Notes under the pieces: generated by a model | What the model was told of the DNA's origin: nothing | The model's database searches: none | The model's input: the letters and a program-made list of their open reading frames with translations, nothing else | Source: Candidatus Brocadiia bacterium | GTDB lineage: Bacteria > Planctomycetota > Brocadiia > CAIUPP01 | Reading direction: 5' to 3' | DNA: 63,073 nucleotides | NCBI GenBank assembly: GCA_050015075.1 | Contig: JBEKCB010000031.1 | Coordinates: forward strand, 1-63,073 | Made by a program: the position numbers and the translations under genes | Shown here: piece by piece, positions 21,793-35,939 of the stretch | Layout of the letters: the number at the start of each line of letters is the position of its first letter | Numbering within the stretch: position 1 is the first letter of the stretch

Positions 21793-22015
21793 CCGGCCGG
21801 CCGCAACGAGCTGGGCCAACTCCGAACGCAGCCGGAGCGTATTCTGGGACATGATATGTTAATCCCCTTGACCACACATCATTGGCGGCGTACCATGGAA
21901 TGTTCGAAAAGGAGGAAAATAACTGGTATTGTGTCCCACGTTTCCCCAACGCGCAGCCTAACCTAAGAAAACAGAGGCACTTTTTCAACAGCCCCATGTG
22001 CCCGTTTATCCTGAA

Positions 22016-22861
22016 CTAGGAGGATGCAGCGCCTTTCAGCTTTCCATTCTTTTCGTTGGTGGAGCGTGTTATCCTACTCGCGGCACGCGCCTGGATCGCT
22101 TCATCAAGGCGCATGTAAAGTTCATTCATTGTATTAATCCCCTCGAAGCGATACGGTTCAGGTTCGTCGGCGAGAATTACCTCCGCGTTGCCCTTGATGC
22201 AGGTTATCTTCGCTCCCTTCAGCTTCTCCAAAACTCGAGCCTGCATGGATTGCTGCTGCGTTTGCGAACCGTTGGCCGCTTCCCCAGCACCGCCGTAAGT
22301 ATATCTTGTGTACCAATCGTACGTATCCAAAGCTGGGTTGGGATACTCCTTAATTATAGCTTCGGCTATGGCGTCGCGTGCTGAAAAGAGGTTTTCCAGA
22401 GAGTTTCGGGTTACCTCAGCGAAAACTCCATTGACTACCATCAGAAAACGGTCATCGTGAAGATTAAAGAATGCCCACTTCGTTTTATCGCTCGCCTCAC
22501 GGTCAATGTGCTCTATGGCATTCCTCGGCTTTACGAACGACCCCAAAAAGGCTCTCTTCTTGCTCCACTCTATCTTAATAACGTCAGATACTGGCCGCTT
22601 AAAGCAGCTCCTGTTTTTCGAAAGGGACTCGAGAAGCCTTCCAGCGCGGCGTACCGCGCAAACAAAACAGGATGCGTGATAAATCATCGCCTTGTTATTT
22701 TCTGGATTATTTGTCGCGAGAAGCTCTTCATATAGCCGAAAGGAGGTCGCTGCGCCTTCTACGTCAGCATCAAAAAGACTGAATCGCTTTGCTGCTTCTG
22801 AAGCGTTGTTGGCCGCTAAAGAAAGTTGTGCCCTCATCTGTAGGGATATCTCAAACATCAT
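22016..22861 (-). CDS. Hypothetical protein on an AT-rich islet, carries an RxxxxH motif
   Basis: 281 aa ORF in sequence visibly more AT-rich than the flanks; PRNAIEH; upstream TTGACG-16-TACAAT at 23039-23012. Confidence 0.6.
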   Translation of the reverse strand: MMFEISLQMRAQLSLAANNASEAAKRFSLFDADVEGAATSFRLYEELLATNNPENNKAMIYHASCFVCAVRRAGRLLESLSKNRSCFKRPVSDVIKIEWSKKRAFLGSFVKPRNAIEHIDREASDKTKWAFFNLHDDRFLMVVNGVFAEVTRNSLENLFSARDAIAEAIIKEYPNPALDTYDWYTRYTYGGAGEAANGSQTQQQSMQARVLEKLKGAKITCIKGNAEVILADEPEPYRFEGINTMNELYMRLDEAIQARAASRITRSTNEKNGKLKGAASS

Positions 22862-23068
22862 CTTTCACTCGCCTTATTCCTGAGCGCTCGGGTGAGCGCT
22901 GGGAAAATAGGATCACAATCCCATTTATTTCCCTCGTTTCTGAGCGATTGCGGTGGCATGAATTGCTGCTTTTCCATTTGCTTATCTTCGGCGAACCGCT
23001 GGCTCACGCCCATTGTACGCTCAAACTGCTTGGCGTCAAGGGTTTCTCGTCTTACTGGAGGAAGATAG

Positions 23069-23278
23069 GAAAACCGGGGACTGGGTGACCGTTGAAAAAG
23101 GTGTCGGACGCGCCAACTCCGATGCGCATCTCAGCTCAGTCATTCCCGCGCAAGCCCTTCGGCCGTGAGCTCAGGGTCGAACGGCGGGAATCCAGGGTCT
23201 CAGCGCGCGAGACTGGATTCCCGCCTTCGCGGGAATGACAAGGAGCGTTTTTCAACAGCCCACCTGTCCCCAGTTTTC
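23069..23278. mobile_element. Nested non-autonomous repeat element (MITE-like) containing a REP pair
   Basis: Outer IR gaaaaccggggactgggtg / cacctgtccccagttttc; inner IR gttgaaaaa / tttttcaac; core gtcattcccgcg...gcgggaatccag and ctggattcccgccttcgcgggaatgac. Confidence 0.65.
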
Positions 23279-23330
23279 AGTTTCCCCGAACGTCCGAGAC
23301 GCAGATAGAATCACCGTGAGGCGCGCGCGA

Positions 23331-24833
23331 CTACTGTTTCGCGGGTTTGGGTGAAAGGAATTGCAGGGCGGCCTTGAAGGCCTCCGGGTTTTCCTGGAAT
23401 AAGCCGCTGTTTCCCGCCACGACAAATCGCCCGGCGCCGAGCCCGCCTCGCAGGACTATGCTCAGCCCGTTGGAATCGCGGAGCGCGGTCGTTACGCCAA
23501 CTCTTAAAGGCTTGACCTGAGAGGGCCACCAGCTCTCGCGCTTGAACGCTTTGATTCCGCCGAAGAGTTCGGGATCCGCCGACAAGGGATCGGCCGCGCC
23601 GATGTTCCTTCCGGTGATGTTGAAGCCCAGCGCCCGGCCGATGGCATTGAGCGGATAGCTCTCAACGGTCTTTGTCTTGGCGGCAAAGGACCATGCCTGC
23701 CCCGCACAGAGGCAACCGCCTCCTGTGGATACGAAGTCCCGCACCAGCTCGACCTCCTCTCTGGTGAATTGGGAAGGCTCTCCGTCGGTTATGATGAGAA
23801 CGCCGATGCCGGACAGGAACTGCTTATCAATCGGACCGTCATTGGGTTTCCAGGTGAAATTCACGGCTTCAACCGTCTGCCGCAGGTTTTTCCAGCCTAG
23901 CCCGTACTGCAGCGCGACGCCGACGGTGCGGCTGCGCTGGGCGTCGAACGGTACGGCGCTCAAGCGAACGGCAGGCTCGGCGTCCGGCGCAGCGGGAGGC
24001 TGCGCGACGGCCGGCTCGGCCGCGGCGGGTTGAGCGGCGACGGTTATGCCGATCTGTTTCCACATCGCAAAGCACATGTCGCTGAGTTCGCCTTCCAGCC
24101 GGGCGCAGTCCGTGGCGGCCTGATCGGCCTGGGCCTCAAGCTTCCTCAATTGAGCCCACGCGTCCGCAGACTCTTTGGACATCACGCCTTGATTGTCGGT
24201 GATGACGGTCGAGCTTGAGCCGGTCGCGGTCCGTTGCGCTCCCTGGACGATCGTCTTGGAGTTGTCCGGCGGACGGGTGATCTGGGTAGTCCGGTTGGCG
24301 GTGACCGATGAGTCGCCGGCCGAGTTGATGGTGGTTTGCGCGCCACCCATGAGGCTGTCGCATCTCGCCTTGGCCGCAGCCTTGCTCTTGTTGAGGTCTG
24401 CGAGAGCCTTATTCGCCTTGGCCAGGTCCAGGGCGGCCTGCGAAAAGCCGGGATATCCGAGAACGGAATTGAACCAGGAATCGGCCGCGTCGAGGCTGCG
24501 GCCGGAGACGGCCCCGTCGAAGGCCAGCGTTCCGTTTCCGCATTTGAGGGCGGAGTTGACGAGTTGTTTCCAGAACTGGGAGTTGCTGTTCTCGCACTGC
24601 AGCTTGGCGATGGACTCCACTTTCACGCGTTGAGTTTCATCGCCGGAAATGCAGAGCAGAGAATCGCCGGCCATGGCCTGGATCCTGGCCATGATCATGC
24701 GGCCCGACTTCAGCCGAATCTGGTCGGAAGCCTCCGGCGCGGCGTTGTCAGCGAACGCGAAAGCGACGACAGACAGGGCAAGAATTGCGGCGGCTTCAAA
24801 TCGCGCGGTCACCGGAAACCCCTTTCCGATCAA
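23331..24833 (-). CDS. Exported multidomain protein with coiled coil and C-terminal flavodoxin/GATase-like alpha/beta domain; start uncertain
   Basis: Signal peptide AFAFA, DQIRLKSG small beta domain, Pro/Ala linker, FTREEVELVRDFVSTGGG and GAGRFVVAGNS motifs. Confidence 0.6.
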   Translation of the reverse strand: MIGKGFPVTARFEAAAILALSVVAFAFADNAAPEASDQIRLKSGRMIMARIQAMAGDSLLCISGDETQRVKVESIAKLQCENSNSQFWKQLVNSALKCGNGTLAFDGAVSGRSLDAADSWFNSVLGYPGFSQAALDLAKANKALADLNKSKAAAKARCDSLMGGAQTTINSAGDSSVTANRTTQITRPPDNSKTIVQGAQRTATGSSSTVITDNQGVMSKESADAWAQLRKLEAQADQAATDCARLEGELSDMCFAMWKQIGITVAAQPAAAEPAVAQPPAAPDAEPAVRLSAVPFDAQRSRTVGVALQYGLGWKNLRQTVEAVNFTWKPNDGPIDKQFLSGIGVLIITDGEPSQFTREEVELVRDFVSTGGGCLCAGQAWSFAAKTKTVESYPLNAIGRALGFNITGRNIGAADPLSADPELFGGIKAFKRESWWPSQVKPLRVGVTTALRDSNGLSIVLRGGLGAGRFVVAGNSGLFQENPEAFKAALQFLSPKPAKQ

Positions 24834-29581: not shown

Positions 29582-30310
29582 TCAACGTTGCGCAGAAGGA
29601 ATGATCTGCAGCACGAAGCAAACACAGTACTTCTCGGCAGCGCCGGGCTTCGGCCCGACCCTTACCAGCATCCCGTCCATGGAATTGCGAGGAAAGCGCA
29701 TCTTTATTACCTCACCATCCGGCAGAGTGATCGGCACGGTTTCCTGCCGCTCGACCTGGTCTTGCGTGAGCGGGACGGCAATCGTGTACTTCACAGGGTA
29801 AAGGAGACTCCGGCTGCTCATCCAGCCAAGGATTTTCTCCTCGACGGCATGCTTGACGCAATAGTGCCGCTCGACCATCCCTGCTTCGGTCTTGTCTGTG
29901 ACATGGATCGTCCCGGGACTATCACATAACCGGCACTTGCAGCCTGCTTCCGATTCCTTCCCCTGCGTTGGCACACGATATGGGCTTATGCGCATAGTGC
30001 TCTGCACGACGTTCGTCACCCAGCGCCTCTCCAGATATCTCCATCCCTGGCCCGGCCGCGCACTGTCCCTGATGTAGCGCACCAGCGCCGCCCAGTTCTT
30101 AAAACCGTACTCTTGGGCCAGCGCATGCTGCGCTTCTGCGAGGGTGACCTTGGCTTTCAGGATGTCCTGATCGGAGGAGGCGGCGAAGCGGCTGAGATGC
30201 CGCAGGACGCGGCAGGCCGAGACATCGCCCTGCTTGTGAGCTTTGAGCAGGTCCTTGGCTTGCTTGCGGAGCTGATCGAGGTTGGGGCGGTCAGGCAGCG
30301 AGAGGCTCAT
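29582..30310 (-). CDS. Mosaic protein: LPxRPNLxQLRKQAK N-terminal domain, Cys/His finger, DnaJ C-terminal-like segment
   Basis: SLPDRPNLDQLRKQAKDLL...AQHALAQEYGFKNW; CRLC...YCVKH; VPITLPDGEVIKMRFP..DGMLVRV. Confidence 0.6.
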   Translation of the reverse strand: MSLSLPDRPNLDQLRKQAKDLLKAHKQGDVSACRVLRHLSRFAASSDQDILKAKVTLAEAQHALAQEYGFKNWAALVRYIRDSARPGQGWRYLERRWVTNVVQSTMRISPYRVPTQGKESEAGCKCRLCDSPGTIHVTDKTEAGMVERHYCVKHAVEEKILGWMSSRSLLYPVKYTIAVPLTQDQVERQETVPITLPDGEVIKMRFPRNSMDGMLVRVGPKPGAAEKYCVCFVLQIIPSAQR

Positions 30311-30438
30311 GCGGCGCCTTCTTTCCACGTTCGCCCGCGGTCTGCAAGTTCAGGCGGAAAAGAAGGTTCGCCAGGTTTTCTCGCTCAGGTGGGCTCGGCC
30401 CTTTCCGCAGACCAGGAGGCGCCCCTTGCGCCGAGGCC

Positions 30439-31807: not shown

Positions 31808-31933
31808 GCGCCTGGCCTCTTCCCGCAGCGTCTTTGATCTCGAATTTCCTTATAATGGTTCGCGCAGGTCGCGGTCAATGCCCTTGGCGGGCGACGGACG
31901 CGAAGGCAGCGCGCGGGAGACCTGAAAAGCACA

Positions 31934-31960
31934 AGGCCCGCTGATCATCTCAGCGGGCCT
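31934..31960 (-). terminator. Probable terminator of the Rrf2-led operon
   Basis: Perfect 11-bp stem aggcccgctga / tcagcgggcct followed on the minus strand by tgtgcttttc. Confidence 0.6.
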
Positions 31961-31981: not shown

Positions 31982-32695
31982 TTAGCCGATCCACAAGCCT
32001 TCCACGCGGACCTGCAATGCAGTCGGCGTGCGATTCAGGTAATTCACCAGCCCGCTGTGCCGCCACTGCAGCATGCACATCGTCGGCTGAAAATAATAGC
32101 GCATCCCGATCCTGATGTCGCAGCGGGCGCGCTGGATCAACCCTTCGTATCCCTCGGCGATGTAATATCCCAGGTCTTTGAAGCCGTGCTGGCGCGGGCG
32201 CAGCGGGCCGGTCACGCACCACACGATTACGCCTGTGCGAGGGTCCACTTGCATGGCCACGCCGCAGTGCGTGATGGGGCAGCCGCACGACATCCCCAGC
32301 GGCCGGCCGATCAGCGTGTCGCCGGGCTGGATGTCCATCTCGCGCGTGATCAGCGGATTGTGCGGCAGGATGATCTCGCGCGGACCGGGTTCTTCGGGGA
32401 AGTGCTCCAGGTAGAAGTCGAACTCGCGGCCGAGGCTGTCTCGCCAGGCCGCCGAGGGCTCGCCGGTTGCGGCCGGGCCGTTGGCGCAAGCGCCACAGGA
32501 CGGAAGCGTGAGCGGCTCAGCCGTCGCCGCTCCCGCCGCAGCTTTCGGCTGCGTGGGAGAACGTTCGCTCGAGAGTTGAATGCAGCGCTTGATCAAGTCC
32601 GGCTCGCTGACCAGCCGATCGGCGAATGCCGAACAGGTGCGAAATCCGCACACTCCGCAATCCAGTCCCGGCAAATCCTTCACAGTCACGCTCAT
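31982..32695 (-). CDS. Putative Fe-S binding protein (FeS domain, COG2000-like)
   Basis: LPGLDCGVCGFRTC...C N-terminal FeS domain; CGAC; GRPLGMSCGCPITHC. Confidence 0.75.
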   Translation of the reverse strand: MSVTVKDLPGLDCGVCGFRTCSAFADRLVSEPDLIKRCIQLSSERSPTQPKAAAGAATAEPLTLPSCGACANGPAATGEPSAAWRDSLGREFDFYLEHFPEEPGPREIILPHNPLITREMDIQPGDTLIGRPLGMSCGCPITHCGVAMQVDPRTGVIVWCVTGPLRPRQHGFKDLGYYIAEGYEGLIQRARCDIRIGMRYYFQPTMCMLQWRHSGLVNYLNRTPTALQVRVEGLWIG

Positions 32696-32757
32696 GCTGT
32701 GCTCCTCTTTATCAACCGCACGCGTCCATGGAACCCGCGCCCTGGAAAATCCTTGCG

Positions 32758-33936
32758 CTATGCAGGCACAGGCACGCGGGTCATGGCAGGCCGCAATGCC
32801 GCCACGGCCTGCGGAAGAACTTGCAATAACCGCTCCACTTCCGCCTCGGTGGTGAAGCGGCCCAACGTCACGCGCAGCGAGCCGCGCGCCCGAACCGGGT
32901 CAAACCCCATCGCCAGCAAGACGTACGAGGGTTCACCCGCATGATGTGCGCTGCACGCGCTCCCCGTCGAGACCGCGATCTTCGCCTCGTCCAGCGCCAG
33001 GAGCAGCCGGATCGCTTCGCCTTCCTGCCCCGCGAACCCCAGGCAGATGTGCCCCGGCAACCGCTGAAACCGATGGCCGATGAGGTAAGCGTTGGGGATC
33101 AGGACGGTGACGGCTTCGATGATGCGGTCGCGCAGATTCACCAGCCGGGCCGCCTCGCCGGACATTTCTGCGCGGGCGATCTCGGCGGCCTTCCCCAGCC
33201 CGACGATGCCGGCCACGTTGTGAGTGGCGGAGCGCAAGCCGCCCTCCTGCCCGCCGCCGTGAACGAGCGGCTCCAGCCGGACGCCCTTGCGCACATAAAG
33301 CGCCCCGACGCCTTGCGGGCCGTGAAGTTTGTGCGCCGAAAGCGAGAGCAAGTCCAGCGGCTGAGCCTGCGCGTCCAGCGGCAATTTACCCGCGGCCTGC
33401 ACGGCGTCGGTGTGGAAGAGCGCGCCGTGCTCGTGCGCGATTCGCCCCAACTCGGTGATCGGCTGAAGCGTCCCGACGACGTTGTTCGCAGCCATGATCG
33501 AGACCAGCCGAGTGTTCGGACGCAGCGCGCCGACCAGCGCGGCCGGATCCACGATCCCATCCGCGCCCACAGGCAGATAAGTGGTTTCGACACCGCGCCG
33601 CCGGAGGTAGCGGCAGGTCTCCAGGATGGCCGGGTGCTCGATGGCGCTGGTGACGATGTGGCAGCCACGCTCGCCCAAGGTCTCGGCCGTACCGACGAGC
33701 GCCATGTTGTCGGCCTCGGTCCCGCTGGCGGTGAACACAATCTCGCCGGGCGCGGCGTGCAGCAAATGAGCAACCTGCCGGCGCGCGTGCTCCACCGCTT
33801 CGTTCGCCTGCCGCCCGGCCCAGTGCCAACTGGAGGCATTGCCGAATCGCTCGCCAAGCCAGGGCCGCATGGCCTGGGCGACGCGCGGGTCGAGCGGCGT
33901 CGTCGCGGCGTTGTCCAGGTAAACCCGTTCGGGCAT
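32758..33936 (-). CDS. iscS: Cysteine desulfurase, group I (IscS/NifS)
   Basis: YLDNAATT, FTASGTEADN, IEHPA, HTDAVQ, SAHKLHGPQG PLP lysine, STGSACS catalytic Cys. Confidence 0.92.
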   Translation of the reverse strand: MPERVYLDNAATTPLDPRVAQAMRPWLGERFGNASSWHWAGRQANEAVEHARRQVAHLLHAAPGEIVFTASGTEADNMALVGTAETLGERGCHIVTSAIEHPAILETCRYLRRRGVETTYLPVGADGIVDPAALVGALRPNTRLVSIMAANNVVGTLQPITELGRIAHEHGALFHTDAVQAAGKLPLDAQAQPLDLLSLSAHKLHGPQGVGALYVRKGVRLEPLVHGGGQEGGLRSATHNVAGIVGLGKAAEIARAEMSGEAARLVNLRDRIIEAVTVLIPNAYLIGHRFQRLPGHICLGFAGQEGEAIRLLLALDEAKIAVSTGSACSAHHAGEPSYVLLAMGFDPVRARGSLRVTLGRFTTEAEVERLLQVLPQAVAALRPAMTRVPVPA

Positions 33937-33937
33937 C

Positions 33938-34639
33938 TCACTCGCCCCGATAGAAAATCTGGTTTTCCAGCGGCCGCACCACGCCGAAGTGCGATTGCCA
34001 GCCGACTTCCTTTTTGCCCACGCAGATCGTGCAGGTGCCGACGGGCGGATTGCCGCGCAACAGCAGATGCTCGCCGGCGTCGGGCGTGGCGTGGACGTGC
34101 TCGACCAGCGGATCAATCCCGATGCCGTACAGCGCGTTCACCTCGCGGATCCGGACCGATGGCGCGACGTCCTGGATGCGGGCGCGGAACACTTCGCGTT
34201 CCGCCTGCGAGACGCGGTCTATTTTGGTGACGACGGCCACGTCGGCCAGCGAGAGCATCGGCCCGACCTTGAGCGGCAGGTTCATCCCGCTCGTCGCCTC
34301 CAGGACCACCATCCCCAGTCCGCCGTCCACGTAGGGCGAGCAGCGCAGGCACAGCCCGGCCGTCTCGACGAACAGCACGCCGCAGTCCGCTTTGCGCGCC
34401 CAGTTGAGCGCATCGCCCAGCACCATCACGTTGCAGTGGTCGGGGCACAGTTCGCCCGAATAGACCTTGCGCGTGGGGATGCCGAACTCCTCGGCGAGCT
34501 GTTCGTCCTCTTCGGCGAATTGCACGTCAATCTTGAGAAAGGCGGCGCGCAGGCCGCCCTGCAGGAGCTTGCGGATCATGTGCCGCAACACGGAGGTCTT
34601 GCCGGTCGTGGCCGGCCCGGCGCAGATGACGAGTTTCAT
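33938..34639 (-). CDS. HypB/UreG-like G3E GTPase, Cys-rich
   Basis: GPATTGKT, ETAG, TKID; LCPDHC, GLCLRCSP, CTIC. Confidence 0.8.
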   Translation of the reverse strand: MKLVICAGPATTGKTSVLRHMIRKLLQGGLRAAFLKIDVQFAEEDEQLAEEFGIPTRKVYSGELCPDHCNVMVLGDALNWARKADCGVLFVETAGLCLRCSPYVDGGLGMVVLEATSGMNLPLKVGPMLSLADVAVVTKIDRVSQAEREVFRARIQDVAPSVRIREVNALYGIGIDPLVEHVHATPDAGEHLLLRGNPPVGTCTICVGKKEVGWQSHFGVVRPLENQIFYRGE

Positions 34640-35421
34640 GCCCAACCCTCCATCTCGCGCGCCGTCAACCGCGCGCCGGACCGAATGGTGTTGCGCAAAC
34701 GGGAGAGCAGGTCGTCCAGGTGGCTCACCTTTACCGAGAACTCGCGCTCTTCCGCGTCGGTGTGCAGAACCTTGGTGACCGTGCCGCCCTGCATCACGAT
34801 GCGATAGTCCGAAAGCAGCGCGATGCGCGGATCGTGCGTGACGAAGATGAAGATCTTGCGGTACTCGCGGAGCAGCTCCAGCGCCCGCGTGCGATGGATG
34901 CCGGCGTTTTCCACCTCGTCCAGCAGCACGATGGGCGTGTTGCAGATGATCGTCGCGTCGGCGATGAGGAGCGCGCGCGTCTGGCCGCCGGAAAGCTCCG
35001 TCATGCGGCTGTCCACGAGGATCGGCTCGCCCGTTAACTGGTTGGCGAAGCCCAGCGTGCGCTCCAGCATCCCTTCGATTTGCGAGCCGGCGCTGCTGCG
35101 GATGCGCGCGTGGGTCATCAGGAATTCCCGGACCGGCAGGTCGGAGAGAAACGTCGTGTGCTGCGTAATCAGGGCGATGGGATTGCGGGCCGGGTCGTCG
35201 CGATACTCGGCGGGCGGCCGCACGCCGTTGATGAGGATGCGCCGGCCCGTCGGCGTGTTGGCGTCGGCGAACAGCTCGATGTCGTTGATGAGCGTGGTCT
35301 TGCCGGAGCCGGTCGGCCCGACGATGCTGACCACGTCGCCCATCCGCAGGTCAATGCGCTGCACGGCTTCCGGCTCGCCGGACTTGCCGTGGCCGCCGAG
35401 AATCGTAATGGCCTCGATCAC
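34636..35421 (-). CDS. Stand-alone ABC-type ATPase
   Basis: GPTGSGKT, LSGGQ, VLLDE, VTHD; no permease gene adjacent; ATGA-type overlap with the GTPase. Confidence 0.85.
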   Translation of the reverse strand: MIEAITILGGHGKSGEPEAVQRIDLRMGDVVSIVGPTGSGKTTLINDIELFADANTPTGRRILINGVRPPAEYRDDPARNPIALITQHTTFLSDLPVREFLMTHARIRSSAGSQIEGMLERTLGFANQLTGEPILVDSRMTELSGGQTRALLIADATIICNTPIVLLDEVENAGIHRTRALELLREYRKIFIFVTHDPRIALLSDYRIVMQGGTVTKVLHTDAEEREFSVKVSHLDDLLSRLRNTIRSGARLTAREMEGWA

Positions 35422-35474
35422 ATTAGTCTCCTTACCCGATGAGACGAGTCACATATCAAGCCCAAAAAAGCCGC

Positions 35475-35876
35475 CTAGGACACGTCGGCCAGCGTTGTGC
35501 TTTCCAGCTTATCCGCCACGTAATCGCGAATCTGCTTGAACACGCGGACAAGGCTCTCTTCCTTTTCGATCGGCGTGGACTCGTAAAAGTACTGGCTGAC
35601 CGACTCCGTCGGCGCGAGCGCTCCGTCGAACAGGCGGATGACTTCGGCCAGCGTGATTTTGTCGGCGTGCTTGGCCAGCCGATAGCCGCCGTGCTGCCCT
35701 TTGCAACTGCGCAGGTACTTCGCGCGCTTGAGAGCGAGCAGAATCTGCTCGAGGAATTTGCGCGGAATGTCCTGGGCCTGGGCGATCGTCTCGACCGAGA
35801 CAAAACCATCCGTGTTGTGGCGGCTCAGATAAACCAGAGCGAGCAGAGCGTATTCGCTGCGAAAGGTGAGTTTCAT
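35475..35876 (-). CDS. Rrf2 family transcriptional regulator lacking the IscR Cys triad
   Basis: SEYALLAL, IAQAQDIPRKFLEQIL, GQHGGYRLA, ITLAEVIRLFDG; no Cys in the C-terminal cluster region. Confidence 0.9.
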   Translation of the reverse strand: MKLTFRSEYALLALVYLSRHNTDGFVSVETIAQAQDIPRKFLEQILLALKRAKYLRSCKGQHGGYRLAKHADKITLAEVIRLFDGALAPTESVSQYFYESTPIEKEESLVRVFKQIRDYVADKLESTTLADVS

Positions 35877-35888
35877 CGCCGGTCTTTC

Positions 35889-35939
35889 TTATATGACTAA
35901 GCTGGTGGGAATTGTAGTATAAGAATGGCCGCCTGTCAA
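35889..35939 (-). promoter_or_regulatory. Sigma70 promoter plus candidate Rrf2 operator
   Basis: TTGACA-17 nt-TACAAT (35939-35911) followed by attcccaccagcttagtcatataa, resembling IscR-type sites. Confidence 0.6.

Follow-up and report, generated by a model that had tools for sequence, protein, structure and literature searches.

An ABC ATPase, G3E GTPase and Fe-S protein trio with an inserted cysteine desulfurase in a Brocadiia bacterium: a candidate module for sulfur mobilisation

How anaerobes, above all methanogens without desulfurases, convert sulfide to protein-bound sulfur is an open question; it is this sulfur that feeds cysteine, homocysteine, coenzyme M and thio-cofactors. An operon that may bear on it lies on contig JBEKCB010000031.1 of a Candidatus Brocadiia bacterium (assembly GCA_050015075.1), of which a stretch of 63,073 nt, hereafter the window, was analysed. 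On the minus strand of the window, five genes run in the same direction and encode, in order, an Rrf2-family regulator, a soluble ABC-type ATPase, a G3E-family GTPase, a NifS-type cysteine desulfurase and a two-domain iron-sulfur (Fe-S) protein. The original prediction for this DNA had described a "scaffold-less" operon for a distinct Fe-S or metal-sulfur assembly machine. We tentatively propose, at somewhat short of an even chance, that this operon arrived by horizontal transfer, is repressed by its Rrf2 protein, consists of an ATPase/GTPase/Fe-S-protein trio into which a desulfurase has been inserted, and serves sulfur mobilisation.

The conservation of the genes was evaluated in two clades of related loci. 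For the bacterial clade, 185,579 species genomes were scanned with two patterns; this yielded 285 confirmed loci, a lower bound, of which 80 were fetched. For the archaeal-type clade, metagenomes were scanned using an alignment of a divergent branch of the Fe-S protein (~45% identity), yielding 167 confirmed loci, of which 80 were likewise fetched. Neighbourhood analysis of these 160 loci (80 from bacterial genomes and 80 from metagenomes) revealed that the order ATPase, GTPase, Fe-S protein is strictly kept. In the bacterial clade, the GTPase gene lies next to the Fe-S-protein gene in 72 of 78 informative loci; in 56 of these, NifS separates the two, and in the other 16 it does not. Among the archaeal-type loci, the GTPase was found in 72 of 80 and the ABC gene in 66 of 80; all 14 loci without the ABC gene have less than 850 nt upstream of the Fe-S-protein gene. 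In three archaeal-type loci, the ABC-GTPase pair lies downstream instead. The ABC gene is always directly upstream of the GTPase gene in both clades, and the ATPase and GTPase of the window match their archaeal-type counterparts at 210-345 bits (phmmer). The conserved core is thus the trio of ATPase, GTPase and Fe-S protein.

The desulfurase (32758..33936, minus strand; 392 aa) is a class-V enzyme of the NifS/IscS type (PF00266, 262.5 bits). Against NCBIfam it scored 467.7 bits on NifS TIGR03402 (cut-off 530.75) and 399.3 on IscS (cut-off 548). Its translation contains SAHK and GSAC, the pyridoxal phosphate (PLP)-lysine motif and the flexible-loop motif with the catalytic Cys, and it is of the group I type. 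It is one of four full-length class-V enzymes in its genome. Its linkage to the trio in the bacterial clade is far above sporadic: NifS stands between GTPase and Fe-S protein in 56 of the 72 informative loci. Counted over all 80 bacterial loci, 56 have the order GTPase-NifS-Fe-S protein, 16 have GTPase and Fe-S protein without a desulfurase between them, four reach a contig end within or just ahead of NifS, two hold only NifS remnants and two are uninformative. A desulfurase was found in the trio unit of none of the 80 archaeal-type loci. Because it is missing from all of these and from 16 bacterial loci, we consider the desulfurase an add-on outside the core.

One of the two remnants lies on a complete Eremiobacterota chromosome (L026:7363-8693), where a NifS remnant of only 190 aa precedes the Fe-S-protein gene and neither ABC ATPase nor GTPase occurs within 8 kb upstream of the latter; this locus may be a decaying or rearranged copy. 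The other (L043) retains 63 aa of NifS only.

Genes that recur beside the trio are largely those of sulfur metabolism. In the bacterial clade, in which many loci end soon downstream of the trio, neighbours include cysK or cystathionine beta-synthase (CBS; 22 of 80 loci), O-acetylhomoserine/O-acetylserine (OAH/OAS) sulfhydrylase (metY; 8 of 80), serine acetyltransferase (cysE; 8 of 80), a metallo-beta-lactamase (MBL)-rhodanese protein (4 of 80) and an FAD protein (4 of 80). The cysK, CBS, cysE and OAH/OAS-sulfhydrylase examples that were scanned exceeded their NCBIfam cut-offs; the MBL-rhodanese protein was below every cut-off. Archaeal-type neighbours were tallied in the 41 loci with at least 4.5 kb downstream. 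Of these, 21 carry methanogenesis marker 16 (ComF) with cysteate synthase and sulfopyruvate decarboxylase, two carry ComF with ComDE, ten carry a LarE-type sulfur transferase with a LipS2-like radical SAM protein, in many cases together with ThiF/MoeB, and one carries the radical SAM protein alone. Because these neighbours are genes for cysteine, homocysteine, coenzyme M and sulfur insertion, they point to sulfur mobilisation rather than general cluster assembly.

The LarE-type genes belong to a third recurrent context, found in L138, L145 and L149-L161. Downstream of the trio, these loci have the LarE-type PP-loop sulfur transferase and the LipS2-like radical SAM protein; upstream, they have ThiF/MoeB, an SsuA-like binding protein and a small open reading frame (ORF) without assignment.

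The Fe-S protein (31982..32695, minus strand; 237 aa) begins with a Cx2Cx4Cx16C domain, which a low-complexity linker joins to a beta-rich C-terminal domain; its sole Pfam match is the 33-residue FeS domain PF04060, at residues 8-39. We call it COG2000-type following the wording of the coenzyme M paper PMC12068725 and its homology to loci beside coenzyme M genes. Residues C13, C16, C21, C38, R131, C139, P140, H143, C207 and H213 are conserved in 72 bacterial and in 78-80 of 80 archaeal-type Fe-S proteins, and D93, R106 and E184 nearly always in both clades. Only the bacterial clade has the further cysteines C137, C144, C160 and C67/C70, which it retains whether or not the locus contains NifS. 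Using an alignment of 64 diverse sequences, AlphaFold2 modelled the protein with a predicted local distance difference test (pLDDT) score of 85.6, exceeding 90 in the C-terminal domain; a model from a 12-sequence alignment (pLDDT 40.2) was discarded. Neither a Foldseek search of the model against the PDB (best E 0.021) nor a VIA-align comparison with 48,161 representative chains (best Z 4.8 over 56 residues) found a solved relative; both matched nothing beyond generic fragments of beta-barrels. Profile searches of PDB sequences matched the N-terminal domain only, to a corrinoid/Fe-S protein (E 0.007), and the ESM Atlas search gave one lead, at 0.76, below trust level. The modelled C-terminal domain, which matches no solved structure and is left unassigned, is not thereby proven to be a novel fold.

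In a protein collection clustered at 90%, 2,208 of 2,514 scored candidates matched the Fe-S protein at E ≤ 0.001. Among the matches listed, 120 relatives were 66-99% identical, and the only names were "(Fe-S)-binding protein" and "uncharacterized Fe-S cluster-containing protein". At 50% clustering, the family comprises 244 representatives in total. No fused form of more than 415 aa containing the C-terminal domain was found, which is weak evidence. Two apparent in-frame fusions of a NifS C-terminus to the N-terminal Fe-S domain (P0154 and P0261, both metagenome protein fragments) were set aside; they lie on fragmentary contigs with frameshifted stretches and are possibly artefacts of assembly or gene calling.

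The GTPase (33938..34639, minus strand; 233 aa from ATG) belongs to PF02492 (43.6 bits; cut-off 20.7) and shares with HypB and UreG this fold family, the Walker A and Walker B motifs and (N/T)KxD. In 35 sequences, the P-loop, Walker B and TKxD residues G10, G15, K16, E94, T140 and D143 are invariant, as are C67, P68, D69, H70, C99, R101, C102, C205, C208, W216 and H219. The CPDHC, CLRC and CTIC motifs named in the original prediction are all present in the translation, as are the Fe-S domain and the SCGCPITHC of the last protein. In an alignment with UreG (5xkt), the CPDH of the GTPase falls on the CPH metal motif, giving a Cys-Pro-x-His resembling that of UreG; with HypB, the GTPase shares a Cys after the Walker B strand. 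The GTPase nevertheless differs from both: it scores far under the two equivalog cut-offs (HypB TIGR00073, 52.1 bits against 121.2; UreG, 21.3 against 204.2), it has an extra invariant C-terminal CxxC...W..H segment, and in the 160 loci it never adjoins hydrogenase or urease genes, clusters of which are absent from the conserved neighbours of the trio.

The ATPase (34636..35421, minus strand; 261 aa) has PF00005 (58.1 bits) as its sole Pfam match. Its catalytic motifs do not vary among 31 sequences from both clades: Walker A (GPTGSGKT), LSGGQ, Walker B (LLDE) and the H-loop (THD). In NCBIfam, 151 ABC models matched weakly (≤52 bits), with no SufC model among the best 25, and the protein appears to fit no named ABC family. 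As had been predicted, the ATPase has no membrane partner in the operon: Pfam and NCBIfam scans of the five proteins revealed no membrane protein or permease. Nor is a permease cluster conserved beside the trio in the 160 loci, although a permease encoded elsewhere could serve the ATPase.

The regulator (35475..35876, minus strand; 133 aa; PF02082, 114.5 bits) exceeds the cut-off of the NCBIfam rrf2_super model. Its best equivalog is CymR (83.3 bits; cut-off 195), followed by IscR (65.3; cut-off 207.55); it thus resembles this branch in having the Rrf2 winged-helix fold and differs from it in scoring under both cut-offs. It contains a single Cys, C58, with none in residues 85-133, and the Fe-S ligand set of IscR, NsrR and RirA (three Cys, plus His/Asp, in the C-terminal half) is absent from its sequence. 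CymR itself is likewise not known to have the three-Cys cluster ligands. In Bacillus, cymR lies directly upstream of a cysteine desulfurase gene, an arrangement that resembles the position of the Rrf2 gene here. Among the 55 bacterial loci with sufficient upstream sequence, 35 have an Rrf2 gene on the same strand upstream of the ABC gene. Six Chloroflexota loci (L009, L016, L023, L035, L011 and L017; about 4.1-5.3 kb) have two tandem Rrf2 paralogues before the ABC gene.

The control region is also conserved. In the window, a sigma-70-type promoter, TTGACA-17-TACAAT (35911..35939, minus strand), matches the consensus at 11 of 12 positions; the scan found two promoter sites, against 0.5 expected from shuffles. 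Of 36 related loci drawn from several phyla, 28 have a promoter of the form TTGAC(N)-16/18-(-10-like) ~30 nt ahead of the start of the Rrf2 gene. The leader element that follows it also recurs across phyla, as TCCCAyCAG..TAGTCATATAAG or, in Chloroflexota, as ATAGGA..AGTAGGAttT. This element is likely an operator that moves with the cassette. A candidate Rrf2 operator is predicted at 35880..35931 (minus strand), as an imperfect inverted repeat with 14-nt arms (35918-35931 and 35880-35893) that are 24 nt apart, 86% complementary and bracket the -10 box and the leader element. The long palindrome is weaker in the nearest relative, L002.

We infer all of the biochemical steps in the following working model. 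The Fe-S protein would be the functional end product, a small redox metalloprotein whose N-terminal [4Fe-4S]-type domain moves electrons and whose C-terminal domain may hold a metal or a small metal-sulfur centre on Cys139, His143, Cys207 and His213. The HypB/UreG-like GTPase would load this C-terminal centre via its own invariant Cys/His motifs, and a dimer of the ABC ATPase would supply conformational work, by analogy with SufC for SufBD. The two nucleoside triphosphatases (NTPases) are likely obligate helpers of the Fe-S protein, with NifS a likely optional sulfur feeder in bacteria: the sulfur would come as persulfide from the in-operon NifS in bacteria and as free sulfide in archaea without a desulfurase in the locus. 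Once loaded, the Fe-S protein could pass activated sulfur, either persulfide or sulfide bound to metal, to enzymes that form thiols or insert sulfur. The Rrf2 protein, which is nearest to CymR and has no cluster ligands, would turn the operon on under shortage of cysteine or sulfur.

Several points weigh against sulfur mobilisation. Gene neighbourhood is the sole functional evidence for the putative sulfur role, and seven of the 41 well-covered archaeal-type loci have none of the neighbours listed above. The window's own operon has no sulfur gene on either side. A tie between the bacterial trio and COG1900 sulfurtransferases was rejected, these being present in only 4 of 50 carrier genomes. 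Metal binding by Cys139, His143, Cys207 and His213 is something that we infer from conservation alone. Finally, a desulfurase under a repressor responding to cysteine limitation would be paradoxical if the goal were cysteine synthesis.

One alternative narrows the original prediction: the operon would be dedicated to Fe-S or metal-sulfur assembly, with NifS providing sulfur, the GTPase iron, the ATPase acting as SufC, the C-terminal domain of the Fe-S protein as scaffold, and the cluster passing to client enzymes. The parts indeed parallel SufS and SufBC2D: a desulfurase, a soluble ABC ATPase and a Cys/His-rich partner occupy one operon under an Rrf2-type regulator. Three of the extra invariant cysteines of the bacterial clade (C137, C144 and C160) surround the core site, and some archaeal-type neighbours are Fe-S enzymes (marker 16 with its ferredoxin domain, and the radical SAM protein). 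The minimal archaeal form of SUF is reportedly SufB2C2. The operon differs from SUF in that it lacks the SufB/SufD core domain and has a G3E GTPase, which SUF lacks; its ATPase has intact generic nucleotide-binding-domain motifs, with no SufC model among its best 25 NCBIfam matches.

The prediction that the operon is scaffold-less held for the operon, whose proteins matched neither the NifU_N scaffold domain (PF01592) nor the SufBD core domain (PF01458) and include no IscU, NifU or SufB type. It did not hold for the genome (4.64 Mb, 93.6% complete), in which nifU (281 aa) followed by nifS occurs on another contig, C2. SufBD was not found anywhere in this 93.6%-complete genome, which favours an assembly role for the operon; NifU-NifS therefore appears to be the sole classical Fe-S system there. 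Carrier genomes mostly hold a normal SUF system besides the trio: of 50 others, 39 have SufBD and 48 have a NifU_N-type scaffold. In all, 49 of the 50 have one or both, the exception being G029 (2.6 Mb; completeness not given). Because these 49 carriers and the window's genome hold conventional scaffolds, it is unlikely that the trio replaces general Fe-S biogenesis. Further, the module is rare and patchy: at least 285 loci are known from 185,579 species genomes, and among 40 relatives of the window's genome it was found in two. The bacterial neighbours cysK, cysE, CBS and metY encode PLP-dependent enzymes or acyltransferases, which work without a cluster, and the 160 loci have no conserved A-type, Nfu or Mrp carrier close to the trio. 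We consider dedicated cluster assembly unlikely. The operon is thus probably not a stand-alone substitute for ISC, NIF or SUF.

The Fe-S protein could instead be a ferredoxin-dependent reductase of persulfide, polysulfide or thiosulfate that delivers sulfide to CysK, MetY or ComF, the NTPases serving to mature its metal. Its N-terminal domain is of the electron-entry type of RnfB and of the large subunit of the corrinoid/Fe-S protein. CysK, OAH sulfhydrylase and ComF, all found as neighbours, use sulfide, and the G3E GTPases HypB and UreG are maturases of enzyme metal sites. Methanogens, however, usually have ample sulfide, the Fe-S protein has no nameable substrate-binding feature and no solved relative of its fold, and strict 1:1:1 linkage with two NTPases is unusual for simple maturation. 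A reductase is accordingly a decidedly doubtful reading.

For the sulfite required in sulfonate synthesis by methanogens, we know of no source, and the trio might supply or channel it to phosphosulfolactate synthase or cysteate synthase. Of the 80 archaeal-type loci, 36 have cysteate synthase downstream of the trio; in L106, L133 and L156 it follows directly and without ComF. Against the CapA model for cysteate synthase, the bacterial CBS-like neighbour reached 401 bits, short of the cut-off of 600. Yet it is the ComF gene that mostly adjoins the Fe-S-protein gene (40 of 80 archaeal-type loci, median +620 nt), and the contexts with LarE/radical SAM and with bacterial cysK, cysE, metY and NifS call for sulfide or persulfide rather than sulfite. 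Six-electron interconversion of sulfide and sulfite moreover normally needs sirohaem, of which there is no sign at the trio. We therefore regard a sulfite route as improbable. Least credible, to the point of being nearly dismissed, is maturation of a nickel, cobalt or zinc enzyme, with the Fe-S protein as electron donor or accessory chaperone and the sulfur neighbours incidental: the nearest characterised relatives of the GTPase are the nickel chaperones HypB and UreG, yet it scores far below their cut-offs, no client metalloenzyme is conserved beside the trio in the 160 loci, and sulfur enzymes recur in three independent contexts.

Sulfur mobilisation can also be stated in a stronger form, which we put forward with considerable reserve as an outside chance. 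The trio would be a third, NTP-driven route to activated sulfur, besides cysteine desulfurases and rhodaneses, in which sulfide or NifS persulfide is captured on a Cys2His2 metal centre of a novel-fold Fe-S protein and delivered to thiol-forming enzymes at the cost of ATP and GTP. If so, this route would be the long-sought sulfur donor of methanogens without desulfurases, and anaerobic bacteria living in sulfur-poor peat and sediments would have acquired the trio on repeated occasions. Because the trio is strictly linked amid genes for sulfur compounds in two domains of life, is 65-90% identical across bacterial phyla and has a structurally unmatched key domain, it is a concrete, testable candidate for the missing step.

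Part of this pattern has been described for methanogens. According to the Fig 2 legend of PMC12068725 (PLoS Genet 2025), coenzyme M biosynthesis genes often stand together with those for an ATPase, a "Ni2+ binding GTPase" and a "COG2000 domain Fe-S protein", whose role the legend gives as unknown. Literature searches over full texts turned up no characterisation of the trio, the mentions being confined to this paper and its preprint. According to supplement file 4 of PMC12068725, the Methanosarcina acetivorans coenzyme M genes MA3297-3299 are flanked by MA3296 (a hypothetical protein) and MA3300 (MoaD/ThiS), and not by the trio. The methanogen trio has the same three protein types as the window, in the same order, and 40 of 80 archaeal-type homologous loci have methanogenesis marker 16 directly downstream. 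The window version differs in that it belongs to the bacterial clade, with NifS inserted and Rrf2 in front, its Fe-S protein has the extra invariant C137, C144, C160 and C67/C70, and no coenzyme M genes lie near the operon. To this, the window adds a trio member from a Brocadiia-like planctomycete of peat and the conservation of promoter and leader across phyla.

The bacterial trio has a patchy phylogenetic distribution. Its proteins are 65-90% identical across seven phyla: Planctomycetota, Chloroflexota, Verrucomicrobiota, Actinomycetota, Omnitrophota, Thermodesulfobacteriota and Acidobacteriota. When the trio was concatenated and a tree built from 61 rows, 19 changes of phylum label were required, where 10 would be the minimum. 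In this tree, the window and a near-identical relative group with Verrucomicrobiota, Actinomycetota, Acidobacteriota and Alphaproteobacteria (SH-like approximate likelihood ratio test, SH-aLRT, 92, not starred), apart from other Planctomycetota. The two of 40 relatives of the window's genome with a full-length homologue of the Fe-S protein comprise one of the same genus (94%) and one of the same class (48%); the other 21 matches among the 40 genomes cover the N-terminal domain only, within proteins of ~450 aa. Together, these data support the view that the operon is a horizontally spread accessory module. The Fe-S protein of the same-class relative (G060:C21:51532-52170) belongs to the archaeal-type branch, at 48% identity. 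Because this is not the bacterial clade, a separate acquisition in G060 is suggested.

The predicted five co-oriented genes with a promoter and a terminator of their own were all found. Downstream of the Fe-S-protein gene, an intrinsic terminator (~31924..31959, minus strand) consists of a GC-rich 14-bp hairpin followed by the U-rich tail UUGUGCUUUUC. Based on folding against shuffled sequences, the hairpin has -36.3 kcal/mol (z = -4.13), and none of 200 shuffles folds as well; a consensus terminator scan of the window did not list it. The ABC and GTPase genes overlap by ATGA. Because of this overlap, the GTPase is likelier to start at ATG 34639 than at TTG 34645. Similarly, the GTPase/NifS junction reads TGAgATG, which places the NifS start at 33936. 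A spacer of 62 nt separates NifS from the Fe-S-protein gene, whose ATG is preceded by the Shine-Dalgarno sequence AAGAGGAG. The junctions within the operon are too tight for an additional gene.

The operon is flanked by genes for a Y-family polymerase, an OprB porin, a DUF488 protein and a GH15 glucoamylase. Because all of these are unrelated to it, the operon stands alone in its genome. Elsewhere, the genome encodes a COG1900/HcyBio homocysteine-biosynthesis protein (507 bits; G000:C17:49333-50409) and a sulfite/nitrite reductase-type protein (G000:C4:18293-19312). Between the polymerase and porin genes, a 248-aa ORF (29582-30328, minus strand) has no Pfam match.

DNA of the operon was found in peat, wetland and soil metagenomes. 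Most of what two metatranscriptome runs yielded were patches of 35-60 nt in which other organisms share conserved motifs. RNA fitting the window's organism comprised an exact contig of 220 nt at the 5' end of the Rrf2 gene and a 263-nt contig at the 5' end of the ABC gene, possibly from DNA carry-over. Finally, positions 22001-24000 of the window have a G+C content of 0.553, against about 0.63-0.69 in the rest.

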